A stretch of 20,000 nt of DNA from an uncultured virus (IMG/VR IMGVR_UViG_3300028591_000172) (IMGVR_UViG_3300028591_000172), one strand, 5' to 3'; positions 2-20,000 are shown, counted from the stretch's first letter. Notes: a model not told the origin generated them from the letters alone. Numbers and translations are program-made.

Positions 2-3000
2 GAAGAATTGTTCGCAAAGAATATAGAACGTTATTTAAACGATATTACAGATCCACAAGAAAAAGTTAAAGCTGTTGCCGCAATCTTAAGATATCACGCA
101 CTTTCAGGAGAACGTGGAAAGAATTTACAATTCGCTTTGCTTGGCAGTGATGAATACTTGAGTGGTTTAAGAGATAGTTATTTAAAAGATCCAATCAAAC
201 CAGGCCAATTCTCTGTTGATGGAAGACAATATGATGCCATTAAAGAAGTTGGTAAAGGTAAGAAGATTGTTTCATTAGACTTGGAAAACTTCTACAAAGA
301 CGTTAAAGGTGATGAAAAGATTTACGAAATTGGTTTTGCTATGTTCGACGGCAATGATGAATTAGATTTCGACGCATCTAAACCAACTCAATATAGAATA
401 TTAATTAAGTATGATGATGAAGAATACTTAGAAGACACTATTAAAGGTTATAGAACATTGGCTTCTGATTCCACAGATTCAAGAAAGAAAGCATCATTTA
501 AAAACTATGTCGACAATACAAATCTTACTAGAGATAGATTAGTAAAGAATTCTGATGGACAATACATTTATGTTATTCATATTTCATCAGGAGTGAATGC
601 TAATGAAGTATTTACCAAAGCTATAAACAAAATATTATCAATGGCAGGAAATGACTATGTTGTATTAGGTCACAATACTAAAGGTCAAGATTCTGACTTT
701 GATAAGATTAGAAATCAATTCGGAGTTGATATGTATAAGTTACTTAATGGAAAACTTAACATAGATACTTTAATCGATGTAGCTAAAAACGGTTATGCTA
801 CAGATGCTAAGATTAATGAATCATCATTGTCATTAGAAAACTTAGCCAAACAAATGGGAATCGAATACGACGCACACTCCGCTGTAGATGATGCTATATT
901 CACCTATCAATATTTCTTATGGAAAATGAAAAATCAAATCGATGTTGACAAGATGAAGTCAGGATTATATGAAGAATTCGAACACATCTTAGAAAAAATC
1001 GGAGCACAAGATATTGACAGAGATCAACTCAATAGAGAACTTTCTAAAATCAAAGTTGATGGTCAAGAAGTTTCGTTTGCTGATTTCTGGCAAGGTGATG
1101 AATTTAAAGATACATATGAGAAGTATGGAACAAAACTTACTAGTGATATAATTCAAAACTTAATTAATTATAGAAACGCTGTATTCAATAGCGATGAAGC
1201 TAGTTACATTAGAAAGAGAGCAACAAACGTTGAACATGATTTGATATATGAAGCTCAATCTGCACATATAACTTGGTTATCTCACCATGATCAAAATGGT
1301 AATAGTAACTTAGATAATTTCAGAGAAAGAATCAGTTTGTTTATTAAACCAAACGAAAATGGTCAAGTAACAAGAACTGAATATACTAACGGTATGAAGC
1401 TATTAAATTCTGTCTTCTTAGATTACAGAACAAGAAAGATGGATGGAGATAGAAACTTCAGAATAGAAGATTTCTTAAGAATGGACACCGATGAAATAAT
1501 CGATGCCGCAAGAAACAAACTTCCTGAATTACATATAACAAAAGAAGAATTAACAAATTATGTTAACGCTTATACATCTTCTCAAGAATTTGAAGATAGT
1601 AAACTAACATCAGAAAAAACATTTGCTTCTAATGCTATATATAACATTTATGATGAAATAGGAAAAACTATTGGATTAGATGGTTTTGATGACGGAACAA
1701 AGATTCTCTTATTTGATATCATGTCTGGTCTTAAGACTGGTAATTTTGCCGAAGCATTTAGAACTAATGCTAATGGCCAAAAAGAATTCATTGTTAAATA
1801 TAATGGCCCAGCTTACGAAAAGAGTTATTATGTTAAGTCATTAGAAGATGCCATTAATGATTTCGCAGCATCTGTTGATGTCCAAAGAGAATGGACGATG
1901 CCTTCAGGTGTAATTCCTGGTCAAACTGTAAAATTAGAAAATGGTGATGATTATAGTTTCAAATCTACAGATGTAGGTATGACACGTCAAAAGTTCCAAG
2001 AATTATTTGGTGGAGCAACTATTGAAGATTATAGAGAATCATTAGGACTATCTGATGGCGATGATTTATTCATACAATTATACAGAGTTCCTGGTGTTGG
2101 ACAAAACGTTATACATACATACAGAGTAAGGATATTAGATAGCAACAAATATGATAATGTTCTTCTTGCTCATGATATATTCGCCGCATACCATAGTGGT
2201 GACTTTGATGGTGACAAAGTTATAATTTTAAAACCAACAAAGTATTTACAAAAAGTCGGTAATCAATTAATGAATTCAACCGATAAAATATGGGAAGTTT
2301 CTGATAAGATAATTTCCAAACTATATAGCGACTCAGCTTATGATTCAGCAAGAGATGACCAAGTAGTTAATAACTTCGCAGATTACTGTGAACAAGAATT
2401 TGGCTTACAAACAACTTTACAAAAAGTTTTCGATTACGCTAGAGATTCCTCTTCAGTTAATCCAACAGAAAGAGATGCTTATGAAAAAGCTTTAGCATAT
2501 GCGTTAGATCAAGAGTTAATTAACAAAGTTAACGCCAAAGAATATCCAACCTTATCCACAGATGAGACTTCTAAACAACTTTATTATTCTGATTTCCTCA
2601 CCGATAAGTATTCAGATGAAGTGGTGAGAAGACTTTCATTAGATACAAAATTCTTAATCGACCAAATTATTTCAGTTAAAGACTCAGCTACAGGTTTCGC
2701 ATCTAAAAAATACAAACCATTATTAGAAGGTTTTAGAAAAACAGTAGAAAATGCCGCTGACTTATTTACATATAATCAAGTTGCTTTATCAAAAACAACT
2801 AAGTTAAGACTAGCTCAAGCTATAGAAAATGACGCCGATAATGTTTTCAAATTTATTAAACAATCAATAGGCGAAACATATTCAGCTAAAATCTTTACAT
2901 CAATAGATGAATATCTTGATGACGTATTTAATGATTCAACATTATCTTCAAAACAAAAAGCACAAGGAGTTATCAATGCTTTGAAGATGGCTGAATTATT

Positions 3001-6000
3001 ATACAGAGGAACAGATGAATTTAATGACATGTTCAATAAATTAACTGATGACATGATTAATAATGCTGATTTATCTGACGAGAGAACTAAAGTTAAAAAG
3101 CTTATTGAATACGCTTCATATAACCAAGTTGATACTAATGGTAGAACAATCGAAGATGTAGACAGATTGTCATTAAATGATTTAACAAATCTTAAATATA
3201 ATATAGTTAATAATCTAGATCCAATGATGAGTAGCAGAAGATTCATGGCCACATCTGGAGATACACATCTATCAAGCAATATAGTAACAAACATCAGGTC
3301 ACAAATTAGTAAGTTGACTGATGCTTCTAAAATTAAATATATTGACGCTGACAATTCAACCAACTGGTTTGCTCCAGAAATACTTTTAGCTACAGGAATG
3401 GTTAGAAAACTTACTCCTGATACATTTGCCGAAATAAGTGGAAGATTTACTTTAGCAAGTTCAAGAACCGTTAATGTTAATATTGGTGATTTATCAGAAG
3501 ACCAATTACCAAAACTCAGTGCTGCTTTCTCTAAACGTTTACATGGTTCGATAAAAATCGGAGACCAAGTAATAGTTAGACCAGGAGAAAAAGTTTTATC
3601 AGCAGATGATAAATATGGTAATCACTATACAAATATATTCGATGAGGACGGTGAACTATTAGTTGACCTTAAAGATATTGTTTCTTTGAACGTACAAAAA
3701 GAAATTTCATTGTTTGGTAACAAACTAGGCATCTTAGGTTCAGGCGACATGAAAGGAACACAAGAACTTTCAGTTGCTCATTCAAGAAATAATTATGGTA
3801 TTGGTTTGGATATAGAATCGTTAAATCAATATAGAGAATTGTTAGGTTCTTACTATTCAATAATAAATTCATTTATTGAAACAATAGAACAATCAAAAGG
3901 TAAAATACCTGGAGAAAAATTGACACAATTAAAAGATTTAAATACAAGATTACATCAAGCATCTCAAGAACAAGCACAGCTTACAGCAGATTATAAGAAA
4001 GCTAGAGATGAATTTGATGCTGACCAAATTGCTCATGGTGAACCAACATGGGACCAATTAGCAGCAATGTTCCGTTCAGCAAGTGAAGAAGAAAGAGATG
4101 AAATTAGATTACTACATAAATCCGTAAGTATGTTTTATCAACCAGATATACAGAAATCTATTAATTTACAAAACTCAATCCAAGATCAAATAGATAATTT
4201 GTTATCTGAATTAGGATTCAAAAATAAAGAAGCGTTATATAAACAATTAAATGAATCAAAAGAAAAGATTCAAGAATTAAGAAGAGCAATGAGACAACAA
4301 ATTGGAGAAAGACAAATTGCTCAAAGAGAAAAGAACTTACTTAAAGATTCAGTTGATTTAAAAGAACGAACAATGCTTTATGATTTGATATCAGATATCG
4401 GAATTGATCCAGCTATGTATGATATAGACAATATGGATATCAAAGATGTCAGAAATCTTTATAAAGAATTTAAAAAGATTGACTATGTCGCATCAGAAAA
4501 TTTACTTTCTTATGCCAAGCAAAGTGCCAATATGCCTGGATACGAAATCATTTATCTCGATGAACACATGAATCCTATTGATGATCCAAACAAAGCTGTG
4601 TTTACAAAAATTAAATGTAGAATGTTCTGCCCAGAAGCATTTAAGTTCTGGGATACTAGTGCTGATACATCTAAAATTGACACAATCAGTTATGTCAATG
4701 ATAGAACAAATCCTGATTCATTAGTTCAATTACATGGCAAATGGTATAGCAAAGCAAAAGATGGTAACGGTAATTGGGTTTACGTTTATGATTCCACGAA
4801 AGAAAATGAAATTAATAACGTAATATCAAAAGCTAATACGCCATGGGCTAGCTCAACAAATGGAACTAGAGTGTATAGAACATTGTTGGCTAAGGTACTC
4901 TATGAAAATTGTTCAGCAGCACAAGCAGAATTAAAGGACATCAATGTTTTAATGAAACAAATGCTTGATGGTAATTCTACATCAGGTTCTTTAGGTGCCG
5001 GCATTATCAATAAAATATTCACAATGATGACTGATGATGAAGTTAGAAAACTTTATACATCAGATGATCCATATATTAAATTTATTCTAAATAAAATGAG
5101 AAGCTTTATGCCTAAGCTTACAGCTACAGACGCTAAAGAATGGGCTGGCTCACAAAAATTATTATCTAAAAACAAGGCTAAAGAATTAGCTAAAAACAAA
5201 ACGCTTCTTTACTACTACACAAAAGCTATTGGAAATATTTTAAATGACCAGGCTTTCTTAAGTGATCAAGAAGCAATGAAAAACGGATATCCATTATTAG
5301 ATAACTCTGATACATATTATCCATTAGAAAAATTGATTGCTGAATTAGCTACAGTATCAGGTGTCAAAGACAGTTATGTGAAATCATTCTCACATAATGT
5401 TAATGACTATACTCTTATGGGATTGCTTAACTTCGTCAATGGTAGAAGTGGCAATCAATCTAACGAATTTAATCCTCAATCAAACTGGGATAGTATTGTT
5501 TATCCAAGAAAAGAAGCAGCAATTGCTGGTCCTGCTGGAGGAAAACTTGGCGATACTGCTGAAGGTCAAAAAGGAATTACTCCAGACCAACAAATCATGT
5601 CTCAATATTACGGTGCCAATAGAACTCTTTCTGAATTATTAGGAATGAATAAAGGAAATAATATTTCTCAATCAAGGGATAGTTTCTTACACGGTGACTT
5701 TGCTACTAGATTCACAGATGAAAATAGATCTAGAGAATTAAGCAAAGAATATTATCCACAAAAAATGGGTGATGACCTTGCCGCTTATGCTAGCGATACT
5801 CCAAATAGATTAGCAAAAGCAAGAATGTTAACAACCAAAGAAGACAGAATGATAGCAGATATTGCTCCTCGTTTCCTTGGTGTTGACAGTAATCTTGGTA
5901 TTTCATATACATCCAAGCCACAAATGTTTGATGGAACTTATGGAGATTATGCTAATGAAGCTACATCAGAAATCTATGGCTGGGCTAGACACGATATGAT

Positions 6001-9000
6001 TCAACCAATAGTAGATAGTATTAAACAATCAATCGGTGACACAGAAACATTAGGTAAAAATTTCTTATCAAGCGGAGAAGAAATGGACATGGATGACGTT
6101 TCTGAACTCGCAAAAGGTATCAATAAACCATCTCTTAATGATATTGATAATTTATCTAAAGAGGATTTGGAAGATTTAAGATACATTCAAGGTTATAACG
6201 TTTCTGATCAAGCAACCTCTTTATACAATACTGAAGGTGACCAATACGATAAAGCTATCGAATCGTTAATGAAATCTAAAGCCATTGCTGATTTTGATAT
6301 AGATAGATTAGCATCAAGTAATATCAAACAACCTGGTATGGACAGAGCTATAGTTTCTTATAACATAAATGTAAAAACATATAGAAATCAATTGCTTGGA
6401 AAAGAATTCATTGAAGTTTATAACTATTTAGATTCAAACACTTCATTAAAGAATGGCTATAACGAATACACAAGAATTAAAAATTTATTGTCATCATTAC
6501 AATACTGTGATGAAAAGTTAGAAAAATTAAATTCATTTACAGACAAGAGAGCTGACAGCAGCATTAAATACTACACAAATACAAGAGCCGAAATACTTAA
6601 AGCATTAAATGTTACTGATGAAGCTCAAATAGAAACTGTTAAACAAAATGTAGAAAGATATCATAAACTCTACGCTAATGTAGACACCATGATTTCTACA
6701 GTTTGTGAAAGACTTTATGCAGCTCAAAAAGCTTATTGTAACGCAACTGGTCAAGTCTGTCCTTCAAGAGAAAGATTCTTCTTGCCTACAGGTGTTAATG
6801 GAAACTCTAACCAAGAAAGAAAAGAAAATGCTTCCATATTATTCGCAGGAACGGCTAAATATAATACAAATCCATTTGCTATAAGAAAAGAAACAACTGG
6901 TTTGAATCCAGCTAATGCTTATACTGAATTTGATGCGTTAAAAAATATAGCATCAGTAGCAACAGAAGTTGGAAAGCTTCAAGCTATATTAACTTATAGA
7001 GAAGAAGCAAAATCAAACGGTGCTATGAATAACGCTTTATCATTTGATGAAACATGTAAAGTTGTTAATAAACTTATTACTGTTGATTCAATGAATAATT
7101 CAGGAGCAACAGAAATCGATAGCGTAGAATATAAAGGATATTCATTCTTCACAACATCTGTATTGGATCAATTGGGAATGAATCACTTCTCAGAAAATCC
7201 AAACGCTAAAACATCTTGTGCTAAATATGCTCATCTTTATAACAGTATTTACAATCAACTTATTGCTCCATTAAAAGAAACTTACGGCGACATTACATTT
7301 GGAAACTTAATGTCAATGTATTTAGCTAATCCACAAGATAAAATTCTTGATAGAGCATTAAAAGGTTATGCCGCAATGATGGACATAGTTGGCAAGATAA
7401 CAACTATTCAAATTGAACGTGGTGAAAAAACAACTGTTACAGATGAAATCTATCAAGCAATAACCAAATATGCTAATGAACATGACTTAGCAATAGTTGA
7501 CCAATTCGGTAGAAAATATGATAAAGACTTATCACAATTTAAAGCATTAACTCCATTTGCTACAGATGACTATATATTCAGAGCTACTCATGGTGGTTTA
7601 GCAACTGAAGGAACTTATGAACAAAACGTAGCTCTTGATGCTTTGCGTGGTGACTTATACTTCATGAATAGAACTGTTGCTGATGCTACACAAAAAATGT
7701 TCTACACAAGAGAACCATCTCAAATTAGTAAATTTGCCAACACAGTTAAGAGTTATGCTACAAGATTGATTATGGCAAATCCTGCTAAGTTTGTTTCTCG
7801 TATTATTAACTTCTCAATGTTTGACTTGAACAGTTCATTGCTTACAGGAAACTGGAGTATGGTCAAAGAACTTCCGAAAATTACAAAAGAACTTAGTGGT
7901 TATTTACAAAGCAATGGTGAATATTGCCCTGACTCATTAAGAGAATTCATGAACGTTACAGGAATTGATCCACTAAAAGACCAACAAGTTTTCTATGGTG
8001 AAACAATTGGTGGAGCTAAAACGGCATACGGAAAATGGATTGGCAAACAATTCACAGCTCAGCATTTAGCTAACAGATATGCTTTATGGTTAAGTATTAA
8101 AAACACAATTGATAACGAAGGTATTGATTCTGTTTACAGTAAACTTGGAAACTCATATTATCTCAAAGACCAAATAAAAGAAATGTATGAGAATATGAAA
8201 ACCACAGAATCAGAAGATTCATTAAGTTCATCAGCATCTGCTAGAATTGCCGCTATGGTAGTTGCTAATCAATATGGAACATACAATGATATGCCAGGAT
8301 TAGCGGGAAGTATGAGCCAACATGGATTTATGTTTACAACTTTCCCAATGGCTTTACTAAGATTTGCTAAAAATGAAATTAGATCTGGTGCGTTTGCTAT
8401 TAAAGAAATATTCACAGGAGCAGCCGATACAGCAACTCTTAAATATTTAGGCAGACAACTTGGTTCATTAATTAGTGTTGTAGCAATTCAAGCAGCATTA
8501 CAAATATTGCCAGCATTGTTAATCGCTAATGGTGATAAAGATGAAGAAAAGGAATTAGTTGAAGAAGTCATAAAGAACGATACTTCATTAGATTTATTCC
8601 AATCCATCCTTCTAAACGATGCTGTATATAATACATCAACATTATGGAATCCAATCTATGGTGTTAAATCTATGGTTGCTAATCCAATAATTGATGCTGT
8701 CGAAAAGAATAAAGACAATACATCTGATGGAAAAGCATTACAAATATTTGGAGATGCACTTGCTACATACTTCAATCAAAACATTTGGAATAGAATTAAT
8801 CCATTGGTAACAACAATTCCTAATATCGTTATTCCTAAAAATGATTGGATAAATCCATATGGTAATCAAGGAACTGACTTCTTTGATAACTTAGCTAGAA
8901 AGACATTGTCATACGCACTAGGTACAAATGGTGCTAATGCGTTTATGAATACAGTTGATTCAGCTAAATATGATGACGATGCTAACTTCATAAATACCTT

Positions 9001-9811
9001 AGGCAATGGTTTGAACAATGCCTTAAGAGAAGAACTTGGTAATTCTAAATCTTATAAATCAAGTTGGAAGAATTATAATAATGCTATCAGTATCATCTAT
9101 GATTACAAGAAAGCATCTGATTCTTCTTCATATGATGTTACATCGGCTAACTTTGATAAGAACTTATATTCTGGTTTAAAAGCAAAACTTAAAAATGCGA
9201 TGAAAATAAAATCATCACCTGTTGTTATTTATAATATAATTAAAGAAGCGTTAGATCAGAATGTTAGTAAGAACGAAATCAAATCAGCCATTGCTGCTGT
9301 ATCTGTAAGAATTCAAATTCAAAGATTAGCTAATAAGCAAGACTTCTTCAATTCACTTTCACAAAAAGATTATAATTCTGTGAAGTCTGCTCTAGCTTAT
9401 GAAGATAGTATATTCCCTAACTTAGATGATCTTTATGTCGAGACAGTTGAACAAGAACAACAACATAAGATAAATACTTCTACTCCATCATTCTCATATA
9501 CAAGTTCATTAAAAACTTATGGTTATAACTATCCAACATATCAAACTTATTCAAGTAATAATTACAGACGCTCATACAAAAATAATTACTATAATAATTT
9601 GAGCAACTGGAATACAAATACTTATAAGAAAAAATATCAATACAATCAACAATGTTCAAATCCAATAAATACTTATAATCAAGCTATGAACAATATTAAT
9701 TATGGTGTTTCAACTGACATCTGGGGTAATCAAACAAGACATTACACTGATGGAACTGAGTATACCGTAAGACAACAAGGTATGCCTTTCCCAGGAGGAA
9801 ATAAAAAGTAA
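2..9811 (+). CDS. Giant multidomain virion protein (5'-truncated, >3,267 aa): DEDDh exonuclease + two-barrel (DPBB) RNA polymerase + helical ejection-protein-like C-terminus; putative virion RNA polymerase
   Basis: The frame is open from the window edge (GAA GAA TTG at 2-10) to TAA 9809-9811, so the true start is probably upstream. Motifs seen: DLE / GHN..D / HSAVDD (DEDDh); LYRVP...AAYHSGDFDGDKV (beta'-like catalytic loop); GNKLG..MKG (beta-like). It sits directly upstream of the terminase-portal-capsid genes. Confidence 0.85.
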   Translation, partial: EELFAKNIERYLNDITDPQEKVKAVAAILRYHALSGERGKNLQFALLGSDEYLSGLRDSYLKDPIKPGQFSVDGRQYDAIKEVGKGKKIVSLDLENFYKDVKGDEKIYEIGFAMFDGNDELDFDASKPTQYRILIKYDDEEYLEDTIKGYRTLASDSTDSRKKASFKNYVDNTNLTRDRLVKNSDGQYIYVIHISSGVNANEVFTKAINKILSMAGNDYVVLGHNTKGQDSDFDKIRNQFGVDMYKLLNGKLNIDTLIDVAKNGYATDAKINESSLSLENLAKQMGIEYDAHSAVDDAIFTYQYFLWKMKNQIDVDKMKSGLYEEFEHILEKIGAQDIDRDQLNRELSKIKVDGQEVSFADFWQGDEFKDTYEKYGTKLTSDIIQNLINYRNAVFNSDEASYIRKRATNVEHDLIYEAQSAHITWLSHHDQNGNSNLDNFRERISLFIKPNENGQVTRTEYTNGMKLLNSVFLDYRTRKMDGDRNFRIEDFLRMDTDEIIDAARNKLPELHITKEELTNYVNAYTSSQEFEDSKLTSEKTFASNAIYNIYDEIGKTIGLDGFDDGTKILLFDIMSGLKTGNFAEAFRTNANGQKEFIVKYNGPAYEKSYYVKSLEDAINDFAASVDVQREWTMPSGVIPGQTVKLENGDDYSFKSTDVGMTRQKFQELFGGATIEDYRESLGLSDGDDLFIQLYRVPGVGQNVIHTYRVRILDSNKYDNVLLAHDIFAAYHSGDFDGDKVIILKPTKYLQKVGNQLMNSTDKIWEVSDKIISKLYSDSAYDSARDDQVVNNFADYCEQEFGLQTTLQKVFDYARDSSSVNPTERDAYEKALAYALDQELINKVNAKEYPTLSTDETSKQLYYSDFLTDKYSDEVVRRLSLDTKFLIDQIISVKDSATGFASKKYKPLLEGFRKTVENAADLFTYNQVALSKTTKLRLAQAIENDADNVFKFIKQSIGETYSAKIFTSIDEYLDDVFNDSTLSSKQKAQGVINALKMAELLYRGTDEFNDMFNKLTDDMINNADLSDERTKVKKLIEYASYNQVDTNGRTIEDVDRLSLNDLTNLKYNIVNNLDPMMSSRRFMATSGDTHLSSNIVTNIRSQISKLTDASKIKYIDADNSTNWFAPEILLATGMVRKLTPDTFAEISGRFTLASSRTVNVNIGDLSEDQLPKLSAAFSKRLHGSIKIGDQVIVRPGEKVLSADDKYGNHYTNIFDEDGELLVDLKDIVSLNVQKEISLFGNKLGILGSGDMKGTQELSVAHSRNNYGIGLDIESLNQYRELLGSYYSIINSFIETIEQSKGKIPGEKLTQLKDLNTRLHQASQEQAQLTADYKKARDEFDADQIAHGEPTWDQLAAMFRSASEEERDEIRLLHKSVSMFYQPDIQKSINLQNSIQDQIDNLLSELGFKNKEALYKQLNESKEKIQELRRAMRQQIGERQIAQREKNLLKDSVDLKERTMLYDLISDIGIDPAMYDIDNMDIKDVRNLYKEFKKIDYVASENLLSYAKQSANMPGYEIIYLDEHMNPIDDPNKAVFTKIKCRMFCPEAFKFWDTSADTSKIDTISYVNDRTNPDSLVQLHGKWYSKAKDGNGNWVYVYDSTKENEINNVISKANTPWASSTNGTRVYRTLLAKVLYENCSAAQAELKDINVLMKQMLDGNSTSGSLGAGIINKIFTMMTDDEVRKLYTSDDPYIKFILNKMRSFMPKLTATDAKEWAGSQKLLSKNKAKELAKNKTLLYYYTKAIGNILNDQAFLSDQEAMKNGYPLLDNSDTYYPLEKLIAELATVSGVKDSYVKSFSHNVNDYTLMGLLNFVNGRSGNQSNEFNPQSNWDSIVYPRKEAAIAGPAGGKLGDTAEGQKGITPDQQIMSQYYGANRTLSELLGMNKGNNISQSRDSFLHGDFATRFTDENRSRELSKEYYPQKMGDDLAAYASDTPNRLAKARMLTTKEDRMIADIAPRFLGVDSNLGISYTSKPQMFDGTYGDYANEATSEIYGWARHDMIQPIVDSIKQSIGDTETLGKNFLSSGEEMDMDDVSELAKGINKPSLNDIDNLSKEDLEDLRYIQGYNVSDQATSLYNTEGDQYDKAIESLMKSKAIADFDIDRLASSNIKQPGMDRAIVSYNINVKTYRNQLLGKEFIEVYNYLDSNTSLKNGYNEYTRIKNLLSSLQYCDEKLEKLNSFTDKRADSSIKYYTNTRAEILKALNVTDEAQIETVKQNVERYHKLYANVDTMISTVCERLYAAQKAYCNATGQVCPSRERFFLPTGVNGNSNQERKENASILFAGTAKYNTNPFAIRKETTGLNPANAYTEFDALKNIASVATEVGKLQAILTYREEAKSNGAMNNALSFDETCKVVNKLITVDSMNNSGATEIDSVEYKGYSFFTTSVLDQLGMNHFSENPNAKTSCAKYAHLYNSIYNQLIAPLKETYGDITFGNLMSMYLANPQDKILDRALKGYAAMMDIVGKITTIQIERGEKTTVTDEIYQAITKYANEHDLAIVDQFGRKYDKDLSQFKALTPFATDDYIFRATHGGLATEGTYEQNVALDALRGDLYFMNRTVADATQKMFYTREPSQISKFANTVKSYATRLIMANPAKFVSRIINFSMFDLNSSLLTGNWSMVKELPKITKELSGYLQSNGEYCPDSLREFMNVTGIDPLKDQQVFYGETIGGAKTAYGKWIGKQFTAQHLANRYALWLSIKNTIDNEGIDSVYSKLGNSYYLKDQIKEMYENMKTTESEDSLSSSASARIAAMVVANQYGTYNDMPGLAGSMSQHGFMFTTFPMALLRFAKNEIRSGAFAIKEIFTGAADTATLKYLGRQLGSLISVVAIQAALQILPALLIANGDKDEEKELVEEVIKNDTSLDLFQSILLNDAVYNTSTLWNPIYGVKSMVANPIIDAVEKNKDNTSDGKALQIFGDALATYFNQNIWNRINPLVTTIPNIVIPKNDWINPYGNQGTDFFDNLARKTLSYALGTNGANAFMNTVDSAKYDDDANFINTLGNGLNNALREELGNSKSYKSSWKNYNNAISIIYDYKKASDSSSYDVTSANFDKNLYSGLKAKLKNAMKIKSSPVVIYNIIKEALDQNVSKNEIKSAIAAVSVRIQIQRLANKQDFFNSLSQKDYNSVKSALAYEDSIFPNLDDLYVETVEQEQQHKINTSTPSFSYTSSLKTYGYNYPTYQTYSSNNYRRSYKNNYYNNLSNWNTNTYKKKYQYNQQCSNPINTYNQAMNNINYGVSTDIWGNQTRHYTDGTEYTVRQQGMPFPGGNKK
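263..925 (+). other. DEDDh (DnaQ/RNase T-like) 3'-5' exonuclease domain within the giant ORF
   Basis: ExoI IVSLDLE (D91 at 278, E93 at 284) is followed by IYEIG. ExoII is VVLGHN...DSDF (H222, D230), then IDTL and SLENLA. ExoIII is AHSAVDDA (H290, D295). Numbering follows the track translation. All catalytic residues are present in canonical order. Confidence 0.9.
1870..2240 (+). other. beta'-like double-psi beta-barrel of a two-barrel RNA polymerase, with catalytic DFDGD
   Basis: DVGMTRQKFQELF ... FIQLYRVPGVGQNVIHTYRVRIL ... VLLAHDIFAAYHSGDFDGDKVIILKP parallels bacterial RpoC CGLPKKMALELF ... [22 protein letters not shown] ... [25 protein letters not shown] (recalled sequence). DFDGD is encoded at 2201-2215 and the conserved Arg (R693) at 2084. 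Confidence 0.88.
3370..4520 (+). other. Candidate beta-like double-psi beta-barrel of RNA polymerase, split by a coiled-coil insertion
   Basis: EILLA...PDTFAEISGRFT resembles RpoB VAF...EDSILVSER. IKIGDQVIVRPGEKVL resembles the flap segment IGAEV.GGDILV. VQKEISLFGNKLGILGSGDMKGT resembles KRRIQPGDKMAGRHGNKGV (K1239 at 3722, K1249 at 3752). IDYVASEN at 4478 may match VDIVLNP. Confidence 0.62.
9793..9798 (+). promoter_or_regulatory. Shine-Dalgarno AGGAGG for terminase, inside the last codons of the giant ORF; TAATG stop/start overlap
   Basis: ccAGGAGGaaataaaaagTAATG; TAA 9809-9811 overlaps ATG 9811-9813. Confidence 0.75.
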
Positions 9812-11391
9812 TGGCTCAAACTCTTGAAGTAATCCCTAATTATAGACCTAATCCAAAACAAGTGCTCCTTCACAATGCTCCTGTATCTTATGATGATATC
9901 TGGATCATTCTCTACGGAGGAGCACGTGGTGCTGGTAAGTCTGCTGGTATCTTAGCAGATGCCGTTCAATTCTGTATGACTTATCCAGGAGCAAAGTGTT
10001 GTATTATCCGTGAAACATTAGATGCTGTTAAGCAATCATTCTTAGATAAGCTTCCTACACTTTTCCCTCAATATGTAAATGGTGTGAAGATATATGACTA
10101 TCGTGAAAAGTCCACGTCTTTCTATCCATCACGATGTATCATATTTCCTAATGGAAGTTACATAACCTTACAACGTGTTGCTGATTACAAAGAAGCAATC
10201 GCCAAGCAAGGTTGGGAATTCCATTACCTCGCAGTTGATGAAGTTACCAAGCATGAAGAACGCACTATCAACTATCTATTGACCTGCGTTCGTTCTGCTG
10301 TTATCACAAATAAATACACAGGAAAACCTCTTCGTATTCCTACGAAAGTTGTTTTCGGTTGTAACCCTGGTGGCATCGGTCACAAATGGGTAAAAGAAAG
10401 ATTCATCGACACAACAGTCGTAAAATATAATGAGCACAAAACTCCTATTCAAACTAAAGACCACATAGAAGTTATTGAAGATCCACATAAGAAAGGTGTC
10501 TTCGTTAAACGATTCATCAGATTCATTCCTGCTACATACTTAGACAATCCATTCTTAAACCAATCTTATGTTGCTAACTTAGATTCTCTTCCAGAGCATC
10601 AAAAGCAATTAGATATGTATGGCAACTGGGATGTTGTCGCTGGAAAATACTTCGACTTACATCCTGAACAGATTGTTGAGCCTGGTATGGTCGCACAAGA
10701 TTTACGTAAGTTCTCAGGTCACGTTGAAATCTTCTGTTCCATCGACTGGGGTTATCAACCATCAGCCGCTTGTTGTTTGTGGCACGCTGTCTTTCCAGAC
10801 CATAGAGTAATAACATTCAAAGAGTTGTATACTCGCGATATGGTATTCGAAGATTTCGTTAAACAAATTGCTGAAGATTCTAGAGATATGGAAATCTCTG
10901 CCATCTGTTTACCACACGATATGTTCAGACACGGTGATAGATACCGTGATGATTCAGGAAAGATTATCGGTGAAATGAAATCCGACGTCTTTGAATATTA
11001 TGGTTTACCTCCTGTTGGAGTTGAATCTGGTAAAGGTAAAGTCAGTCTTCGTTACGACAAGATACATTCAGCTTGCTCCCTAAGACACGAAGATGGTGTT
11101 TACAAATTTAGAATTTCTAAAGCATGTGTAAACTTATTAGATGAAATGGATCATGCGGTTCATGATGATGTTGATCCAGTCGTTCTTAAAGGTAGCGACC
11201 ACGCAATTGATGCTTACGGTCACTTCTTAGTTTATTATTCTGATGATATTGAACCATTAGGATTTGAATCTCTAGTAAAGGATAACCGTTCTTATCTACA
11301 AAGATTAATGGATGAAGATGAAGAACGTTTAGAACAAGAAGAGGAAGATGAACTTTCGGTTGCGATTGATAGTATTTATGACGTGTGGTAG
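9811..11391 (+). CDS. terL: Phage terminase large subunit
   Basis: Adenine-binding PNPKQ, Walker A LYGGARGAGKS, Walker B YLAVDE, coupling motif GCNPGG, FIPATYLDNPFL, RNase H-like nuclease IDWG and C-terminal DHAIDA. Confidence 0.96.
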   Translation: MAQTLEVIPNYRPNPKQVLLHNAPVSYDDIWIILYGGARGAGKSAGILADAVQFCMTYPGAKCCIIRETLDAVKQSFLDKLPTLFPQYVNGVKIYDYREKSTSFYPSRCIIFPNGSYITLQRVADYKEAIAKQGWEFHYLAVDEVTKHEERTINYLLTCVRSAVITNKYTGKPLRIPTKVVFGCNPGGIGHKWVKERFIDTTVVKYNEHKTPIQTKDHIEVIEDPHKKGVFVKRFIRFIPATYLDNPFLNQSYVANLDSLPEHQKQLDMYGNWDVVAGKYFDLHPEQIVEPGMVAQDLRKFSGHVEIFCSIDWGYQPSAACCLWHAVFPDHRVITFKELYTRDMVFEDFVKQIAEDSRDMEISAICLPHDMFRHGDRYRDDSGKIIGEMKSDVFEYYGLPPVGVESGKGKVSLRYDKIHSACSLRHEDGVYKFRISKACVNLLDEMDHAVHDDVDPVVLKGSDHAIDAYGHFLVYYSDDIEPLGFESLVKDNRSYLQRLMDEDEERLEQEEEDELSVAIDSIYDVW

Positions 11392-12032: not shown

Positions 12033-13964
12033 ATGAGAGGTAATGCTAAAGATATAGCCACTTATATCGAAATGTTTGTTGATGATTCAATGTCCCAATT
12101 AAATCCATACATTTTACAGGGCAAGCTCAACAACGAATATATAAGTGGGAACCAAAATAAAAAGATTAACGTAAGGCATTTAAAGATTGAAGAAAAGAAA
12201 CCTGATCCACAGGTCTATACAGAAAAGAAAATCTTCAATCGTATTTTGCCTATTTATTTAACTCGTTATGGTATCCTCACACAAAACATGCCAATCCCTG
12301 GAATTATTCCAACAGGTTACGCATCTAAAGATATAGAAGACGCAAACAATGTAAACATCTTTGTTCCTAAGTTTATGAATGACATTGGATACAAAGACAT
12401 ATATAAAAAAATTATTAAATGGACAGACATCTATGGCATCTCATGGATTAAAACCGGTATTGACTGGAGCTATGGTGATGAAATTTGTCGTATTGAAAAT
12501 ACTAAAATTGGTGACACCACTGGAACATTGGTCCTCAAAGAAGGCTCCACATTCCTAACTTTCTGTCCTATCCATGAAATTTTTGTTGATTCATATTATG
12601 TTGAAACAATGGAAGATGTTAATGAATTAGTTCATAGACGTGTCTTCCCTATCGAATACATTAAAAAACGTTGGGGATTTGAAGCAGAGAAAGAAAGCAT
12701 TAATGATGCTAAGCTCTCTACTTATCCTCGCTATTCAAACTTTGGTTTAGCGCAAGCTGGCACTATCGAATACGCATATGTATATGAATATTATAGGAAA
12801 CCAGATGCGTTATATCCTGAAGGTAGATACACAATCTGTTGTAATAAAAAAATAATTTATGACGGAAAACTTCCTTACATAAATGCTGAAAATGATAAGA
12901 GAGTTATACCATTTGACTTCGTAACAATGCAGTCTATTCCAAATAAACTAGTTGGTGTTACAGTATATTCTCAAATCATTCCTATCCAAGATACTTATAA
13001 TTCAATCAAGAACCGTTACCTTGAATACGTTAACCACATTGCTATTGGTCAACTCTATTATTGGGAAGGTTCGTTAGTAAACAAAAATAATTTCACAAAT
13101 AAGCCTGGTAAGCTCATTGGCTTAAAGCGTAATGCCAAAGCTCCACAACCAGTTCAAAAAGATAAACTTTCAAATGAATTCACTGCTTACTTAAAAGCAC
13201 TTGAAGATGACATGTTAGTTACAGCAGGTCTATCTCCATTAACAGCATTCGGCGAAAGCAAATCAAACGTCAGAACTGACGGTGTTGTCGATAAGATGAG
13301 TGAGTCTGATGACAACAAATTAGTTAACGCTATAGATAATTTATCCGAACTTACAGTGAGGGTATTTAAGAAGGTGTTATATCTTGAAAAACAAAGATAT
13401 GATACACTACATAAACAACTCGAACTTGCCAAGAAGGATACTTCTATCTTAAAATATAATCTGCAAGGAGTAGATCCCGAACAATTGTCCATTATTAATC
13501 GAGAATTTTTGATGACAAGTGACCAAGTGTTCGACAAGAAACTACAACAAGCAGGTCAATTCGGTTTATACAATCCTCAATCTGGTTTGTCCTACCGTGC
13601 TAAGAAACAAGTGCTCGACTCTATGAAAGCCTCGTATCTCATTGATACATTGGATCCACAGGAACGAGCTACTTACGACTTATGTATGGATGAGCAACGT
13701 CAGTGGATGGATGGTAAACTGCCTGAAGTGTTCGAATATCATGAACACGCTCGACATATTGCTGAACATAATATATTCAGAATTAGTCCTGAAGTTAGGT
13801 GCCTTAAAGACAAGGACGAGAAAAAGTGGAAACTTCTTCAGGAAGCTCTGGATGCTCATATTAAGGAACATCAGAAATATTTAGAGCAAAATCAACAAAG
13901 TGACGTAATTGCAAATGCCAAGGAAGCACTTAAAGGTACAACTAAAAGAAATAGTCAAGGCTAA
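12033..13964 (+). CDS. Portal protein (podovirus/P22-like size class)
   Basis: AGGAG at 12021-12025. The 643 aa ORF lies between terL and scaffold/capsid. Portal-like segments include IFNRILPI, YGISWIKTGID, CPIHEIFVD, VYEYYRKP..YPEGRY, IIPIQDTYNSIKN and TNKPGKLI. Confidence 0.87.
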   Translation: MRGNAKDIATYIEMFVDDSMSQLNPYILQGKLNNEYISGNQNKKINVRHLKIEEKKPDPQVYTEKKIFNRILPIYLTRYGILTQNMPIPGIIPTGYASKDIEDANNVNIFVPKFMNDIGYKDIYKKIIKWTDIYGISWIKTGIDWSYGDEICRIENTKIGDTTGTLVLKEGSTFLTFCPIHEIFVDSYYVETMEDVNELVHRRVFPIEYIKKRWGFEAEKESINDAKLSTYPRYSNFGLAQAGTIEYAYVYEYYRKPDALYPEGRYTICCNKKIIYDGKLPYINAENDKRVIPFDFVTMQSIPNKLVGVTVYSQIIPIQDTYNSIKNRYLEYVNHIAIGQLYYWEGSLVNKNNFTNKPGKLIGLKRNAKAPQPVQKDKLSNEFTAYLKALEDDMLVTAGLSPLTAFGESKSNVRTDGVVDKMSESDDNKLVNAIDNLSELTVRVFKKVLYLEKQRYDTLHKQLELAKKDTSILKYNLQGVDPEQLSIINREFLMTSDQVFDKKLQQAGQFGLYNPQSGLSYRAKKQVLDSMKASYLIDTLDPQERATYDLCMDEQRQWMDGKLPEVFEYHEHARHIAEHNIFRISPEVRCLKDKDEKKWKLLQEALDAHIKEHQKYLEQNQQSDVIANAKEALKGTTKRNSQG

Positions 13965-14651: not shown

Positions 14652-16268
14652 ATGACCAATGATAAAATTGAATCTGGCCTCTATATGGGCACAGAAGTTG
14701 GTGGCGGCAACTACAACGCCAAACAAGTTATTGAAGACTTTATGAAAACCGAATATGAAGAAGGTTTCCGTAATGAATTCAACGCATTAGATGCTTTAAT
14801 CAATAAGCTTCCAAAAGATACCATTAAGGGTAAGAAGAAATATAAATCCTTCAAACTCGGTATCTCCGACAATATTAGAGCTGTCGGTTCTGGCACATTC
14901 GATAGATACGAACTCGGTATGGAAGATTTCTCTGGCCGTGGTGGTGAAACAGTCGATGCAGAATTCGACACCACAAAATTAATGGCTACATTCTCCATCA
15001 CTGATGAAGCAATCTTAAAAGGCACAGGTGATGGTTCCTTAATCGATGTGTTAAAAGATCAATTATCCGATATGGAAATTGGTATGAAACACACAATGAA
15101 CCGTTACACATATGGCGCAGCCAATGGTAAAATTGGTTCATTAGCATATGACGGTGGCAAATTAATTAACATCGTTGATGTCTCTGGTATTACAGCTGCT
15201 TCTCAACAAATTAGTGATACTGCCTTAGACTTCGGTCGTGATGTTCGTGGTGTTTATCACAATATGTTTAGATATGGCAAAGCACCAAAGGTTATCTCCT
15301 TCAAGATGCTCAACTCCCATTCCTTAATTGCTGGTATGGGTGCCTTAATCCAATACCAAGCTGGTAGCACACTTGCCGCTAACGACTTAAGAGTTGTTGG
15401 TTATATCTGGCAAAAAGACAACACTGAAATTCACAGTGAAAAAGTCTTATTCATCGTTGAAGCTGTTTATAAATACAGTGGTTCTGCTTGGGTTAAAGAA
15501 TCCGATTTCTCAACATTAGCATCTGCTCTTCCAGCATCTGGCACAAGTGCAGTGGCAATTGTCTATTCCAGACAATTAGATGATAAAGGTGCTATTGCTA
15601 AAGAATACACCGGCTTAGAAGATATCGTTGTTACACAAAACAATACAATCTTCGGTGTCAACAGAAACATCTATCGTTCATTAAACTGCACAGCAGTTGA
15701 CTTAGCAGACAGCCAATTCCTCAACGAAGAACTCTTAAGAGATATGACAGACCACTTAGCATTATCTTCTCCAGAAGGCACATCCATTACATTATGCTGT
15801 GCCAACCACAGAATCATCTCCCAAGTTGAAAAGTCCTTATATCAATTTAAGAACTACAACTTAACAGATGTTGGCCAAGGTATGCAACTCGGTGGTGGTT
15901 CCGAACTCAGATTCGACAACTATGTCTTACATAAAGACGCATTCGCAAGAGACAACAACCTCTACTTATTAGACCAAAATAAGATTGGTGAATTAGTCCG
16001 TAGAGACTTCACATGGATTACATCTGGCGAAGTCAATGGTGTCTTACAACGTAGACCAGGTACAGAAATGTATGAAGGTATCATGAACAAATACGCCGAT
16101 ATGTATATCGACGCATGGAGATGCCACGCTGTCATCAAACACTGTAAAGTTACAACTCCAGGTTCCTTCTTCAGCTATCAATCCAACGGCTTACCAAAAG
16201 GTGTTGGTGACACAGCTCAAGTCGAAATCACCGGCGTTGCTGATGGTGTTAAATTCCCAGCTGAATAG
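14652..16268 (+). CDS. Major capsid protein (HK97 fold, putative, with central insertion)
   Basis: Strong AGGAGG at 14635-14640 and high-expression codon bias (many TTC/AAC/ATC/TCC). Capsid-like segments include ATFSITDEAILK, MNRYTYGAANG, EYTGLEDIV..TIFGVNR and LYLLD. It is followed by a terminator. Confidence 0.85.
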   Translation: MTNDKIESGLYMGTEVGGGNYNAKQVIEDFMKTEYEEGFRNEFNALDALINKLPKDTIKGKKKYKSFKLGISDNIRAVGSGTFDRYELGMEDFSGRGGETVDAEFDTTKLMATFSITDEAILKGTGDGSLIDVLKDQLSDMEIGMKHTMNRYTYGAANGKIGSLAYDGGKLINIVDVSGITAASQQISDTALDFGRDVRGVYHNMFRYGKAPKVISFKMLNSHSLIAGMGALIQYQAGSTLAANDLRVVGYIWQKDNTEIHSEKVLFIVEAVYKYSGSAWVKESDFSTLASALPASGTSAVAIVYSRQLDDKGAIAKEYTGLEDIVVTQNNTIFGVNRNIYRSLNCTAVDLADSQFLNEELLRDMTDHLALSSPEGTSITLCCANHRIISQVEKSLYQFKNYNLTDVGQGMQLGGGSELRFDNYVLHKDAFARDNNLYLLDQNKIGELVRRDFTWITSGEVNGVLQRRPGTEMYEGIMNKYADMYIDAWRCHAVIKHCKVTTPGSFFSYQSNGLPKGVGDTAQVEITGVADGVKFPAE

Positions 16269-17438: not shown

Positions 17439-20000
17439 ATGCCAACCAGAACAAAAGACTATCCTATATATACGTATGATGAACCTGCTGTATACAAGGA
17501 TTTTTCTGGTGGAATAAATACTGATCCTAGTAATGATCATCTATTAGATACAGAATTAAGAGACTGTGTTAATATGACATACTTTTCTGGTGCCTTAGTT
17601 AAACGTCAAGGTGCTAAAAAAATATGTGATGTTGTATGTGAAGATAGTTTATTCAACATTCAAGGAGTATTTCTATTCACATATAAAATTACTTATTTAA
17701 TTGTTGCCGCCGATGGCAAACTTTACCAGGGAATTTATAATGAAGATACAACAATTAGATTAAACAGACTGTATATAAAATACACTAAGCCAACCGAAGA
17801 CAAAGTTTTCGATGAACTTAATGTATTCTCAGGCGTAGAAGAAATAGATTCTAACGATTATATAAAGAGCACAAACCATGAAGGATATGTCCAAACATTT
17901 TTTAGAAACATCCAAACAGACGAAACATTCACTAAAAATCTAAGAGGAGATTTTGACGACATTACTGGTGGTGCTGTTAATGTTGGTGATGTTTTTATTT
18001 CAAATAATACATTTAGATATTTATGTATTAAAAATTTTGTAAAAGAATTCTGGTATCCAAGTGTATCTCAAAAGTGGGAATTATTAGCTTATACAGGTTC
18101 AGAAGCAGAGCCTGGAAGTATTTTTAAATACGTTGAAGACGGCGTTACATATACAATACAAGCTGATGATCCAAGCGTTGAAGCAAAAATAAACGCAATT
18201 ACTTCATCAAATAATGTTCATATTTTTGATATAGATGACAATAGAGTTTGGTACGCTAATGACTTTTGCTATTACGATGGAAAATTTTACAAGTGTAAAG
18301 TAACTCATCAAAATATGCACAACGCTTTAATGAATAACGAATACTTTATTGACTTAACAAATTTAAGCGGAACAAATTTTGTAGAAGAATCATTCTTTGT
18401 TTTCCAAAACTATAGAAAAATTGAAGCCGCTACATTAAATAACAAATTATATATAGCAACAGGAACAAGAATAATTGAAGTTTCTATGTTCGCAAACAAT
18501 CTCGTTGCCCGTCCTATTACTCCGTATCTTTGTAATTATACAGAAATCACAAAGATTGGTTACAACTATATGTCACCATATCCTGAACTTGCTGTCGCTA
18601 GTCAATTAAATACAGTTACAACAAGCATTACAGGAATCAAAGTCACAAAGAAAATTGCTGGTAATTTCTTATTAACTCCAATTATGAATATACAAATAGG
18701 TGACTCAGTTGATAACTATTATTATCGTTGGGAGAAAAATATTAATGGAACCTGGTATACTGTTGTTCCTTTCGCAGCACAACGTCAAGCGTTTTTACCA
18801 TCTGGAGATGGAACATCAATACCAGTAGAAAGAAAAAATTATTATTATATAGAAGTTGATGATGCCGATAAATATACTTATCGTTGTACATTCGCTAGAG
18901 CTTTTGAAACAACAACAGATGTAGTTGAACCATGGAATATGGCATCCAATTATAAAATTGGCGATGTTGTTTCTATAGATCAAAGAATTTTTAAATGTAT
19001 AAATTCACATAATGCTGAAGATATTGTGTATCAGAACAATGTATTTGATTTATACGGATATAAAGCAATTACATCTAATGGCGAAACTAATTACGAACGA
19101 ATTCAATTATGGGAAGAAGTATATAATTTAGAATTATTACTTTATATCCACAAAACAATTAATCAAAGTGGTGAAGTAGTTAATACTTTTACAACAGTTT
19201 ACGATTATAAGATTGATAAAGTTACTGGTGAATATTATGGTTCAGCCACATCAGTTTTGTTTGATAATGAATTAGGAATAAATGATAACTTCTTAATGAT
19301 TCAATCATGTACCAAGGTTATTGCTGATGGTAATAAATTATTATTCTATGCCGACAGATTCAATTCAGGTATGTGGTTCAAAACAATTATAAATAATCCT
19401 GGTTATGTAACTGATAGAGGTAATCTTTCATTCAAAACAAATAAGAATGAAGCAGTTATCAAAGTTATTCCATTCCAAGGGAATATACTTGTGTTTGCTA
19501 ACTCAGATGAAATTGGTGGATCTATTCATTTAGTCCAAGGTAACGGCGATGACTATGACGATCAATCAGGATATTATTCACCATACCAAAGGAGAACAAT
19601 CAATGCGTCCATTACATCATCGAATGCTGACTCTATTCAAATTTGTGACAACATCATTGTGTTTAAATATTTCAATAGAGTTTACTACATTAATGCTAGC
19701 GATCTTAACAATGATACGGTTAAAGTAAATCCTTGTAATGACAGAGTTCTTAACAATGAAGGCGATGTTAAAATTCCTTGGGATGATGATGATTGTATTT
19801 CAGAAGTAACCAAAGATTACTATGCTTTATTATGGAAAGAAAAATACGCACTAGATTCAAGTGGAGATTTAATTCAAACTCATCCTGGTATGCGTGTAAA
19901 AATGTATTACAAAATGTCTGTTCAATATGATGACAACACATATGGTATGCCATGGTTAAGAGATGAAGGAAAAATATTCGACACTAACTTTATTTTATAC
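17439..20000 (+). CDS. Tail nozzle / tail tubular protein B-like beta-propeller protein (3'-truncated, >854 aa), absent from the ORF track
   Basis: ATG 17439 follows GAGGA. My translation shows no stop before the window end: MPTRTKDYPIYTYDEPAVYKDFSGGINTDPSNDHLLDTELRDCVNMTYFSGALVKRQG... The DFSGG..N..GAL.KR.G N-terminus is typical of T7 gp12/P22 gp10-like proteins, and propeller-like strands follow (NKLYIATG, NKLLFY, GNILVF). Confidence 0.82.
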   Translation, partial: MPTRTKDYPIYTYDEPAVYKDFSGGINTDPSNDHLLDTELRDCVNMTYFSGALVKRQGAKKICDVVCEDSLFNIQGVFLFTYKITYLIVAADGKLYQGIYNEDTTIRLNRLYIKYTKPTEDKVFDELNVFSGVEEIDSNDYIKSTNHEGYVQTFFRNIQTDETFTKNLRGDFDDITGGAVNVGDVFISNNTFRYLCIKNFVKEFWYPSVSQKWELLAYTGSEAEPGSIFKYVEDGVTYTIQADDPSVEAKINAITSSNNVHIFDIDDNRVWYANDFCYYDGKFYKCKVTHQNMHNALMNNEYFIDLTNLSGTNFVEESFFVFQNYRKIEAATLNNKLYIATGTRIIEVSMFANNLVARPITPYLCNYTEITKIGYNYMSPYPELAVASQLNTVTTSITGIKVTKKIAGNFLLTPIMNIQIGDSVDNYYYRWEKNINGTWYTVVPFAAQRQAFLPSGDGTSIPVERKNYYYIEVDDADKYTYRCTFARAFETTTDVVEPWNMASNYKIGDVVSIDQRIFKCINSHNAEDIVYQNNVFDLYGYKAITSNGETNYERIQLWEEVYNLELLLYIHKTINQSGEVVNTFTTVYDYKIDKVTGEYYGSATSVLFDNELGINDNFLMIQSCTKVIADGNKLLFYADRFNSGMWFKTIINNPGYVTDRGNLSFKTNKNEAVIKVIPFQGNILVFANSDEIGGSIHLVQGNGDDYDDQSGYYSPYQRRTINASITSSNADSIQICDNIIVFKYFNRVYYINASDLNNDTVKVNPCNDRVLNNEGDVKIPWDDDDCISEVTKDYYALLWKEKYALDSSGDLIQTHPGMRVKMYYKMSVQYDDNTYGMPWLRDEGKIFDTNFILY

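Follow-up and report, generated by a model that had tools for sequence, protein, structure and literature searches.

Whether a giant phage protein may hold an RNA polymerase active site whose two barrels are joined in the reverse of the customary order is the question raised by a 20,000-nucleotide stretch of DNA, referred to here in its entirety as the window, from the uncultured virus IMGVR_UViG_3300028591_000172. An original prediction, made from the sequence, had read the long open reading frame (ORF) at its 5' end as an aspartate-bearing, beta'-like barrel followed by a lysine-bearing, beta-like barrel, and had proposed a permuted or independently fused beta'-beta arrangement. All of the motifs named in that reading are present in the plus-strand ORF 2..9811 and in the order given, with the Asp loop first and the Lys motif ~505 aa later; each lies two residues further along than had been written, DFDGD for example at window aa 734-738 and not 732-736. 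The source is an uncultured phage of about 78 kb, and to judge from its sequence the ORF probably encodes a virion RNA polymerase of a new phage lineage. The gene, its relatives, its position in the genome and the signature of its aspartate barrel (barrel A) are established. Coordinates of all features are given in Table 1.

The DFDGD motif of barrel A is encoded at nt 2201-2215, and R695, P697, H731, G733, D734, F735, D736, D738, K739 and P745 are identical in all nine members of the protein family. As six of the nine were fetched by scanning with Asp-loop patterns (GDFD[SG]DK or DIF[AM]AYH; the relatives P0003 and P0004 were found otherwise), the invariance of the residues within those patterns is partly by construction; the R-x-P motif (R695/P697), Y707 and P745 lie outside them. 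The available text of PMC2919709 describes an invariant R-x-P loop located 33-45 aa before the Asp loop in two-barrel enzymes, formed by R446/P448 in Rpb1 and R962/P964 in QDE-1. In the window protein the R-x-P motif stands 39 aa before D734, compared to 35 aa in E. coli beta' (R425/P427, D460) and 45 aa in QDE-1 (PMC2919709, same text). Two sequence features of barrel A in the two-barrel superfamily, the DxDxD metal loop (D734, D736, D738) and the R-x-P loop, are present. The family columns of barrel A were compared by hhalign to single sequences of known enzymes, with reversed templates as controls, and yielded P values of 0.00071 for gp96, 0.00083 for gp66, 0.0023 for RpoC, 0.0037 for YonO and 0.023 for gp64, with the catalytic motifs aligned in register; the reversed templates gave P values of 0.06-0.38. 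The beta'-like half of the original prediction is borne out by the upstream R-x-P and by the four closest of these matches (P 0.0007-0.004; reversed templates, 0.06-0.31). Pfam RNA_pol_Rpb1_2 (PF00623) was detected in one of seven members scanned (E 0.0024), which is below the gathering cut-off, and not in the window protein itself. The first half of barrel A was modelled by AF2 with a predicted local distance difference test score (pLDDT) of 70-80 (model residues 40-90), but the Asp loop (model residues 116-137) with a pLDDT below 50. The sequence features together provide good support for barrel A as a genuine catalytic barrel of beta' type, belonging to the two-barrel RNA polymerase superfamily, in which the three aspartates of DFDGD would hold the catalytic Mg2+. 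Family members share 17-40% identity, and retention of the full barrel-A signature at this level of divergence argues for catalysis.

Barrel A is followed by a conserved helical block carrying an F-T-Y motif 188 aa after the first Asp. When barrel A and this block were aligned together by hhalign to gp66, gp96 and rpoC, P values of 0.006-0.007 were obtained, and by analogy to gp66 aa 876-930 are a candidate for the bridge-helix region. A second acidic motif, DFDID at window aa 2097-2101 (nt 6290-6304), is an exact copy of the gp66 motif; it lacks conservation in P0003 and P0004, the two other full-length proteins, and is therefore probably due to chance.

The full-length form of the protein, P0002 (5,771 aa), was the sole match of an exhaustive phmmer search with aa 400-1599 against 1.84 billion representatives. 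Window aa n corresponds to P0002 aa n + 2502, so that the first 2,502 residues are encoded upstream of the window, which accounts for the N-terminus that the original prediction had noted as missing; the window holds the back 57% of P0002. Two other full-length relatives were recovered from a collection of 5.8 billion clusters: P0003 (5,917 aa, 40% identity) and P0004 (5,525 aa, 33% identity). The pattern scans added one confirmed relative among 90 stretches from IMG/VR (L001, close to P0003) and five among 273 metagenomic stretches (L002-L006, 24-31% identical across barrel A). In five of six loci, the sixth being cut off, the giant ORF has an ORF of 527-536 aa directly after it, and in the window this second ORF is the terminase. 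The giant gene is located directly upstream of the terminase, portal and head genes and overlaps the terminase start. By analogy to gp66 and gp96, its product may be a polymerase that is packaged in the virion, leaves it together with the DNA and transcribes the earliest phage genes. In the chain, a DEDDh exonuclease-like domain precedes barrel A and the conserved helical module follows it. Polymerase activity, packaging and the location of the partner barrel are inferences.

Foremost among the candidates for the partner barrel is the region at window aa 1123-1290, which would place barrel A before barrel B; this placement is offered tentatively, and the beta-like assignment of aa 1120-1500 is unproven. 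By eye, three elements of the region line up in order with residues 812-826 and 1045-1075 of E. coli beta. An aromatic-acidic strand and D-x-F motif at aa 1122-1142 (PDTFAEISGRF being at aa 1139-1149, with D1140 as the Asp) resemble beta F812-E813-D814 and E825-D826-R-F; a V-x-V-x-G-E-x-V hairpin at aa 1184-1199, IKIGDQVIVRPGEKVL, which opens with IKIGD at aa 1184, resembles the start of the beta flap; and a hydrophobic strand with G-N-K1241 and K1251-G-T (GNK at aa 1239-1241, MKG at aa 1250-1252) resembles beta G-D-K1065 and G-N-K1073-G. The PDTF, IKIGD and GNK..KGT motifs fall 400-520 aa downstream of DFDGD. In known enzymes the second-barrel residues are K979, K987 and D837 of Rpb2 and K1065, K1073 and D814 of beta, to which K1241, K1251 and either D1140 or E1127 would be the candidate counterparts. 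The Lys motif is invariant in a three-way alignment of three independent close relatives, that is, within the close subgroup only. Against an RpoB template profile built from 80 gammaproteobacterial RpoB fragments, hhalign aligned the first two of the three elements, with P 0.029 for the whole region and 0.0075 for the N-terminal half alone (reversed template, 0.64). An unanchored hhalign comparison, in which the lysines were not used, was made between the P0002 subgroup and the compact relatives L003, L004 and L006 over the span from DFDGD+200 to the P-E motif; it placed the first lysine on the first and the second on the second exactly, at P 0.071 (reversed, 0.47). AF2 predicted a beta-rich fold at aa 1144-1233 with pLDDT 61-78.

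A number of results weigh against this reading. The lysine half of the candidate region was not aligned to RpoB by hhalign (P 0.32; for the compact subgroup, P 0.46 and 0.10), and no P value below 0.14 was obtained for the candidate region with templates from gp96, gp64, gp66 or YonO. Hidden Markov models (HMMs) of the Lys motif from one subgroup miss the motif in the other and match best elsewhere in the proteins, L002 and L005 were not aligned at the Lys motif by hhalign, and BLAST of P0002 against five distant relatives returned no segment over P0002 3560-4020. A Lys-motif profile searched against PDB found no polymerase, its best match being a Walker-A-like stretch of MsbA (E 0.93). An early count of invariant lysines in nine of nine members was discounted as circular, because the segments had been centred on a regular expression written after the motif was seen. 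The AF2 model gave the Lys loop a pLDDT of 22-30. At no point did the likeness of the Lys motif to beta reach the significance threshold. The beta-like half of the original prediction is therefore unproven: there is a Lys motif, without variation in the close relatives, but its beta likeness is below significance in every test made. Barrel B of gp66 is also described as weakly conserved in sequence in the available text of 10.1101/2020.03.07.982082, so that these negatives do not rule against the candidate beta-like region. A Walker A P-loop was considered for the Lys motif in view of the MsbA match and rejected, since the spacing of G-x4-G-K-[ST] is not present.

Structure prediction and library searches count against the polymerase-barrel reading as a whole. 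The original prediction had proposed that the structure of aa 600-1600 be predicted to see whether the lysines pack against the aspartates, and this yielded the beta-rich domain described above but no confident model of the pair of barrels: AF2 model 1 (window aa 604-1733, from eight sequences), the only model to span both candidate barrels, had a mean pLDDT of 53 and a predicted template modelling score (pTM) of 0.29, with low confidence at both loops, and AF2 model 2, of aa 3120-3480 of the compact relative L003 from five sequences, had a mean pLDDT of 37.6 and was unusable. Foldseek of the model against PDB and BFVD returned no match at E <=0.001. Its PDB ranking was headed by gp96 (8h2n_A, E 0.37), with gp66 at rank 10 (E 1.5) and Pol IV at ranks 23, 32 and 50; as all E values exceed 0.3, these matches are only a hint. 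Fold searches were dominated by a helical insert of ~190 aa, no fold match was obtained for the candidate beta-like domain, and two VIA-align runs were filled by helical bundles (Z 8-10, model residues 660-846) and were uninformative on the barrels. Prediction of a complex between the barrel-A module and the candidate B domain gave an ESMFold2 score of 0.00 in a run made without controls. The giant protein as a whole matched four weak Pfam families, none of them a polymerase, and no PHROG; it matched nothing in PDB by sequence, with one irrelevant match when the family profile was used, and nothing in the phage collection by megablast or tblastn (50,697 phage records for tblastn). Searches of the protein collection produced nothing useful, either with single sequence (1,797-5,721 aa) or with the family alignment (1,979-5,000 aa), and no relative was found among genome contigs. 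Among protein-atlas clusters that have a Pfam family, the one nearest to aa 600-1600 was RNA-dependent RNA polymerase (RdRP), with a score of 0.82, which is a lead only; the candidate beta-like domain returned porin-like noise.

If the partner barrel is not at aa 1123-1290, the next most plausible arrangement, which we regard as less likely, is the canonical one, in which the Lys/Arg barrel lies upstream of the window at P0002 2154-2228, ~1,000 aa before DFDGD. The exonuclease domain and helical region would then be insertions in the connector, and the G-N-K..K-G-T region a lineage-specific accessory domain. The inspection of the missing N-terminus for another beta-like barrel, as had been advised, did turn up this conserved block, which corresponds to L004 aa 2222-2296; BLAST gave only four segments in common with L004, of which this is one (E 9e-5). 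The block also falls within BLAST segments to L002 and L005, while the downstream region at aa 1123-1290 has no BLAST conservation beyond the close subgroup. Within the block Y2211 is kept in eight of eight members, R2225 is Arg in L001, L002, L003, P0002, P0003 and P0004, Lys in L004 and ambiguous in L005, and by eye the block resembles the strand-loop-Arg motif at aa 143-160 of YonO. Support from hhalign was absent, however: comparison to rpoB and to the regions that hold barrel B in YonO, gp66, gp96 and gp64 gave P 0.18-0.93, and the YonO alignment missed the motif. The block also has one conserved basic residue and not two, and its distance of ~1,000 aa from the Asp loop compares with ~220-350 aa in gp96 and gp66. 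Nearer to barrel A, E399 is the only residue between the exonuclease domain and barrel A that is kept in at least eight of nine members, indicating that there is no canonical barrel B within ~400 aa upstream of barrel A.

It is unlikely that the chain has no second barrel at all and that barrel A works with a separate partner, is a relic, or serves as a Mg-binding module in a giant ejection or tape-measure-like protein. This would accord with the failure of either candidate B barrel, upstream or at aa 1123-1290, to reach significance, with the tape-measure-like helical proteins that were matched by Foldseek in BFVD (best E 0.007), and with the helical or hydrophobic character of large parts of the protein. 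It is less easily squared with the full barrel-A signature kept across the divergence of the family, or with the 44 scanned ORFs (>=110 aa) of a related 77-kb IMG/VR contig, among which no other RNA polymerase PHROG was found; in that contig there was also no candidate for Pfam RNA_pol_Rpb2_6 (PF00562). Moreover, gp66 likewise shows only barrel A by sequence, according to the available text of 10.1101/2020.03.07.982082.

A partner barrel further downstream, at window aa 1518-1701, would leave the order reversed, and is improbable. Among the blocks after barrel A it is the best conserved, with BLAST segments to L002 and L005; E1545 and N1620 (P0002 E4047 and N4122) are kept in nine of nine members, AF2 placed five beta strands there, followed by helices, at low to middling confidence, and by eye E1545 comes after a hydrophobic strand, in the manner of E813/D814 of E. 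coli beta. The block nonetheless has no invariant basic pair, its lysines being out of register among members, and no profile or fold match, and it may equally be a C-terminal clamp element such as follows the trigger loop in known enzymes. There is a similarly slim chance that none of these placements, whether the predicted region, the other downstream block, the upstream block or the lack of a second barrel, is correct.

The domain ahead of barrel A resembles DEDDh-type 3'-5' exonucleases, and all three of the exonuclease motifs (Exo I, II and III) are present. Pfam RNase_T (PF00929) matches it at 21.1 bits (E 0.00049), short of the cut-off of 24 bits, and matches the L001 relative with E 0.00028; two of the seven family members scanned have the match. 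The motif columns N225, D232, H292 and D297 are kept in at least eight of nine members, and the domain is present in most of the family, being absent from P0004 and not recognisable in L005. Following the Lys motif, a helical insert of ~190-215 aa is found only in P0002, P0003, L001 and P0004 and not in the compact relatives, and the compact relatives have 527-640 aa between barrel A and the P-E motif, as opposed to 796-825 aa in the P0002 subgroup. Across the family, conservation is highest in the C-terminal 820 aa, with BLAST E values of 1e-45 to 1e-64 to L003, L004, L005 and L006. The last ~120 aa (window ~9450-9808) form an Asn/Tyr/Lys-rich low-complexity tail with a conserved Gly/Pro-rich terminus, much of which is conserved in all three full-length proteins. 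At the other end of the protein, upstream of the window, P0002 aa ~400-620 contain a Gly/Ala-rich hydrophobic stretch within an N-terminal block common to L002 and L004, and this stretch is reminiscent of the membrane-inserting parts of ejection and tape-measure proteins.

Table 1. Coordinates of features in the window (nucleotides of the whole stretch, with window residue numbers) and, in the last line, in the related contig
Feature	Nucleotides	Residues	Strand	Motifs and matches
Giant protein, C-terminal part	2..9811		+	Longest ORF of the window, 3,269 aa, open at 5' end
DEDDh-type 3'-5' exonuclease-like domain	263..931	~88-310	+	D-x-E aa 93-95, H-N..D aa 224-234, H-x4-D aa 292-297
Barrel A, predicted beta'-type catalytic double-psi barrel	1874..2251	~625-750	+	R695-x-P697, H731, G733-DFDGD-K739, P745
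Conserved helical block after barrel A	2627..2791	876-930	+	D894, G898, A900, K902 and Y924 kept in at least 8 of 9 members
Candidate beta-like region	3368..3871	1123-1290	+	Acidic motifs aa 1122-1132, D1140; hairpin aa 1184-1199; G-N-K1241..K1251-G-T
Helical-bundle/coiled-coil insert	3788..4348	~1263-1449	+	AF2 long helices, pLDDT 70-80
Second family-wide conserved block downstream of barrel A	4553..5104	1518-1701	+	E1545, N1620 invariant
Conserved C-terminal region with hydrophobic segments, then Asn/Tyr-rich tail to stop	7235..9700		+	
Large terminase subunit	9811..11391		+	PHROG 979, E 7e-37; Pfam Terminase_3, E 6.3e-10
Portal protein, P22-like	12033..13964		+	Pfam P22_portal, E 7.6e-10; PHROG 156, E 2.2e-14
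Probable major head protein	14652..16268		+	PHROG 9953, E 4.1e-8, partial match
Related-contig genes (GroEL-like chaperonin, radical-SAM proteins)	L095:1075-2586 and L095:17196-19132		both -	

The stop codon that ends the giant gene and the ATG that begins the terminase gene overlap at 9811 (window 9808-9814); this arrangement suggests co-transcription and possibly translational coupling of the two genes. The GC content is 30-40%. The terminase matched 695 phage records, all at less than 60% identity, and the 12 matches listed are to Arthrobacter, Pelagibacter and Roseobacter phages at 26-30% identity. At the 3' end of the window, an ORF of at least 854 aa (17439-20000), open at its 3' end, contains a CBM_5_12 carbohydrate-binding module (Pfam E 5.8e-7), and its product is probably a tail fibre or spike. 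Among the products of the related 77-kb contig are a DNA polymerase, primases, a helicase, a Sak4-like protein, tail fibres and a GroEL-like chaperonin; the chaperonin matches PHROG 5725 (E 8e-79), and the contig also carries two radical-SAM proteins. A scan of IMG/VR for the coding pattern of GDFDGDK returned 1 and then 48 loci, and two other groups of giant ORFs in IMG/VR were found to carry R-x-P 38-41 aa before GDFDGDK. These are different families, the first (L117, L119, L122, L124, L125 and L134) having tape-measure-like sequence ~1,100 aa downstream and the second comprising L113, L118, L121, L132, L136 and L144; both are likely to be further cryptic virion polymerases, unrelated to the P0002 family, and they added no depth to its alignment.

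Crass-like phages and P23-45 are already known to have giant virion proteins with a cell-type RNA polymerase concealed in them. The P0002 lineage, which is recognised by no library and has a handful of metagenomic relatives, would add an independent phage-borne transcription enzyme to these. In its fullest form the proposal is of an undescribed lineage of ~72-78 kb phages with an Asp-first, Lys-second single-chain polymerase and a DEDDh exonuclease in an ejected polypeptide of ~5,800 residues, and in this form it may be entertained as a tentative reading. Two aspects would be new if upheld: the placement of a DEDDh exonuclease-like domain immediately ahead of the polymerase core within one chain, from which the transcription enzyme may carry a built-in 3'-5' nuclease, and the Asp-first order of the two barrels. 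The latter, if true, would be opposite to the order in QDE-1, YonO, gp66, gp96, gp64, PolD DP2, Orf6 and NCgl1702, and would mean that a two-barrel active site had been assembled by independent fusion or permutation. Barrel order bears on whether the two-barrel active site came from a single barrel that was duplicated and fused or arose on more than one occasion, and a natural permuted form would directly test which of the connections between the barrels are dispensable. Of the two barrels only the aspartate one is secure, and this window alone therefore does not suffice for the evolutionary claim.

The original prediction had stated that the Lys barrel comes first in known single-chain forms, and this is true of every one checked: in every described single-chain two-barrel enzyme examined, the Lys/Arg barrel precedes the aspartate barrel. 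From the available text of PMC2919709, D709, R738 and K743 of QDE-1 precede R962, P964 and D1007-1011, Orf6 has the order Rpb2::Rpb1 and NCgl1702 the order beta::beta'. K386, R389 and K392 of PolD DP2 precede D956 and D958 in the available text of PMC4996933, and the DNDGD motif of YonO is found at aa 535 of 839. No description of the opposite, aspartate-first order was found in full-text searches of one literature collection on permuted or reversed two-barrel or DPBB (double-psi beta-barrel) enzymes. QDE-1 and the eukaryotic RdRPs, YonO and PolD DP2 resemble the window protein in being single chains. Of the eight invariant residues of two-barrel enzymes listed in the available text of PMC2919709, five are present here, namely the R, P, D, D and D of barrel A; QDE-1, YonO and PolD DP2 differ in having the Lys/Arg barrel first, and in the window protein the positions of the three barrel-B residues are not secure.

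The E. coli enzyme differs in having two chains where the window protein has one, and the searches detected none of the remaining conserved domains of beta or beta' in the window protein. In RpoB the two lysines are spaced by 8 residues as compared to 10 here, and the lysine half was left unaligned by hhalign. The R-x-P..DFDGD array does correspond to R425, P427, D460, D462 and D464 of beta', and RpoB shares the by-eye colinearity of the candidate B region and the N-half hhalign match (P 0.0075) described above.

Of the virion enzymes, gp96, the P23-45 virion RNA polymerase fused to a tape measure protein (PDB 8H2N), also has its core within a protein of ~5,000 residues. That core is N-terminal (aa 327-1124), whereas here the core starts after ~3,100 residues; the gp96 gene follows the tail genes, whereas the P0002 gene is found just before the terminase; and the Lys stretch of gp96 is ~220 aa upstream of DFDGD (aa 779), as opposed to 505 aa downstream here. 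The candidate B region aligned to gp96 by hhalign with P 0.14. By eye, G-D-G-A-L-G-I-L..G-L-K-G-T at aa ~507-560 of gp96 is similar to G-N-K-L-G-I-L..M-K-G-T of the window protein, and gp96 was both the best Foldseek match in PDB (E 0.37) and the best barrel-A match by hhalign (P 0.00071).

Another close parallel is gp66 of the crAss-like Cellulophaga phage phi14:2 (PDB 6VR4). No sequence kinship to the gp66 family was found in PDB, in PHROGs or by tblastn, there being no sequence match to 6VR4 and a Foldseek E of 1.5, and the barrel-A hhalign match was the only signal; the terminase, all of whose 695 matches are below 60% identity, is not close to any Crassvirales record. The gp66 protein has 2,180 aa and DFDID, as compared to 5,771 aa and DFDGD here. 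As given in the available text of 10.1101/2020.03.07.982082, its order is barrel B, connector (1095-1238), barrel A (DFDID at 1361), bridge helix (1529-1559) and trigger loop (1598-1636), whereas in the window protein no conserved basic motif is found within 400 aa upstream of barrel A; that text reports no exonuclease domain for gp66, and as in the P0002 family only barrel A of gp66 is recognisable by sequence. Both are giant proteins encoded in a block of virion genes together with a P22-like portal, and both have a DFDxD-K-hydrophobic-P loop and an R-x-P loop, the two loops being aligned at P 0.00083 by hhalign. The F-T-Y motif, which in gp66 falls within the published bridge helix, lies 186 aa after the first Asp in gp66 and 188 aa after it in the window protein.

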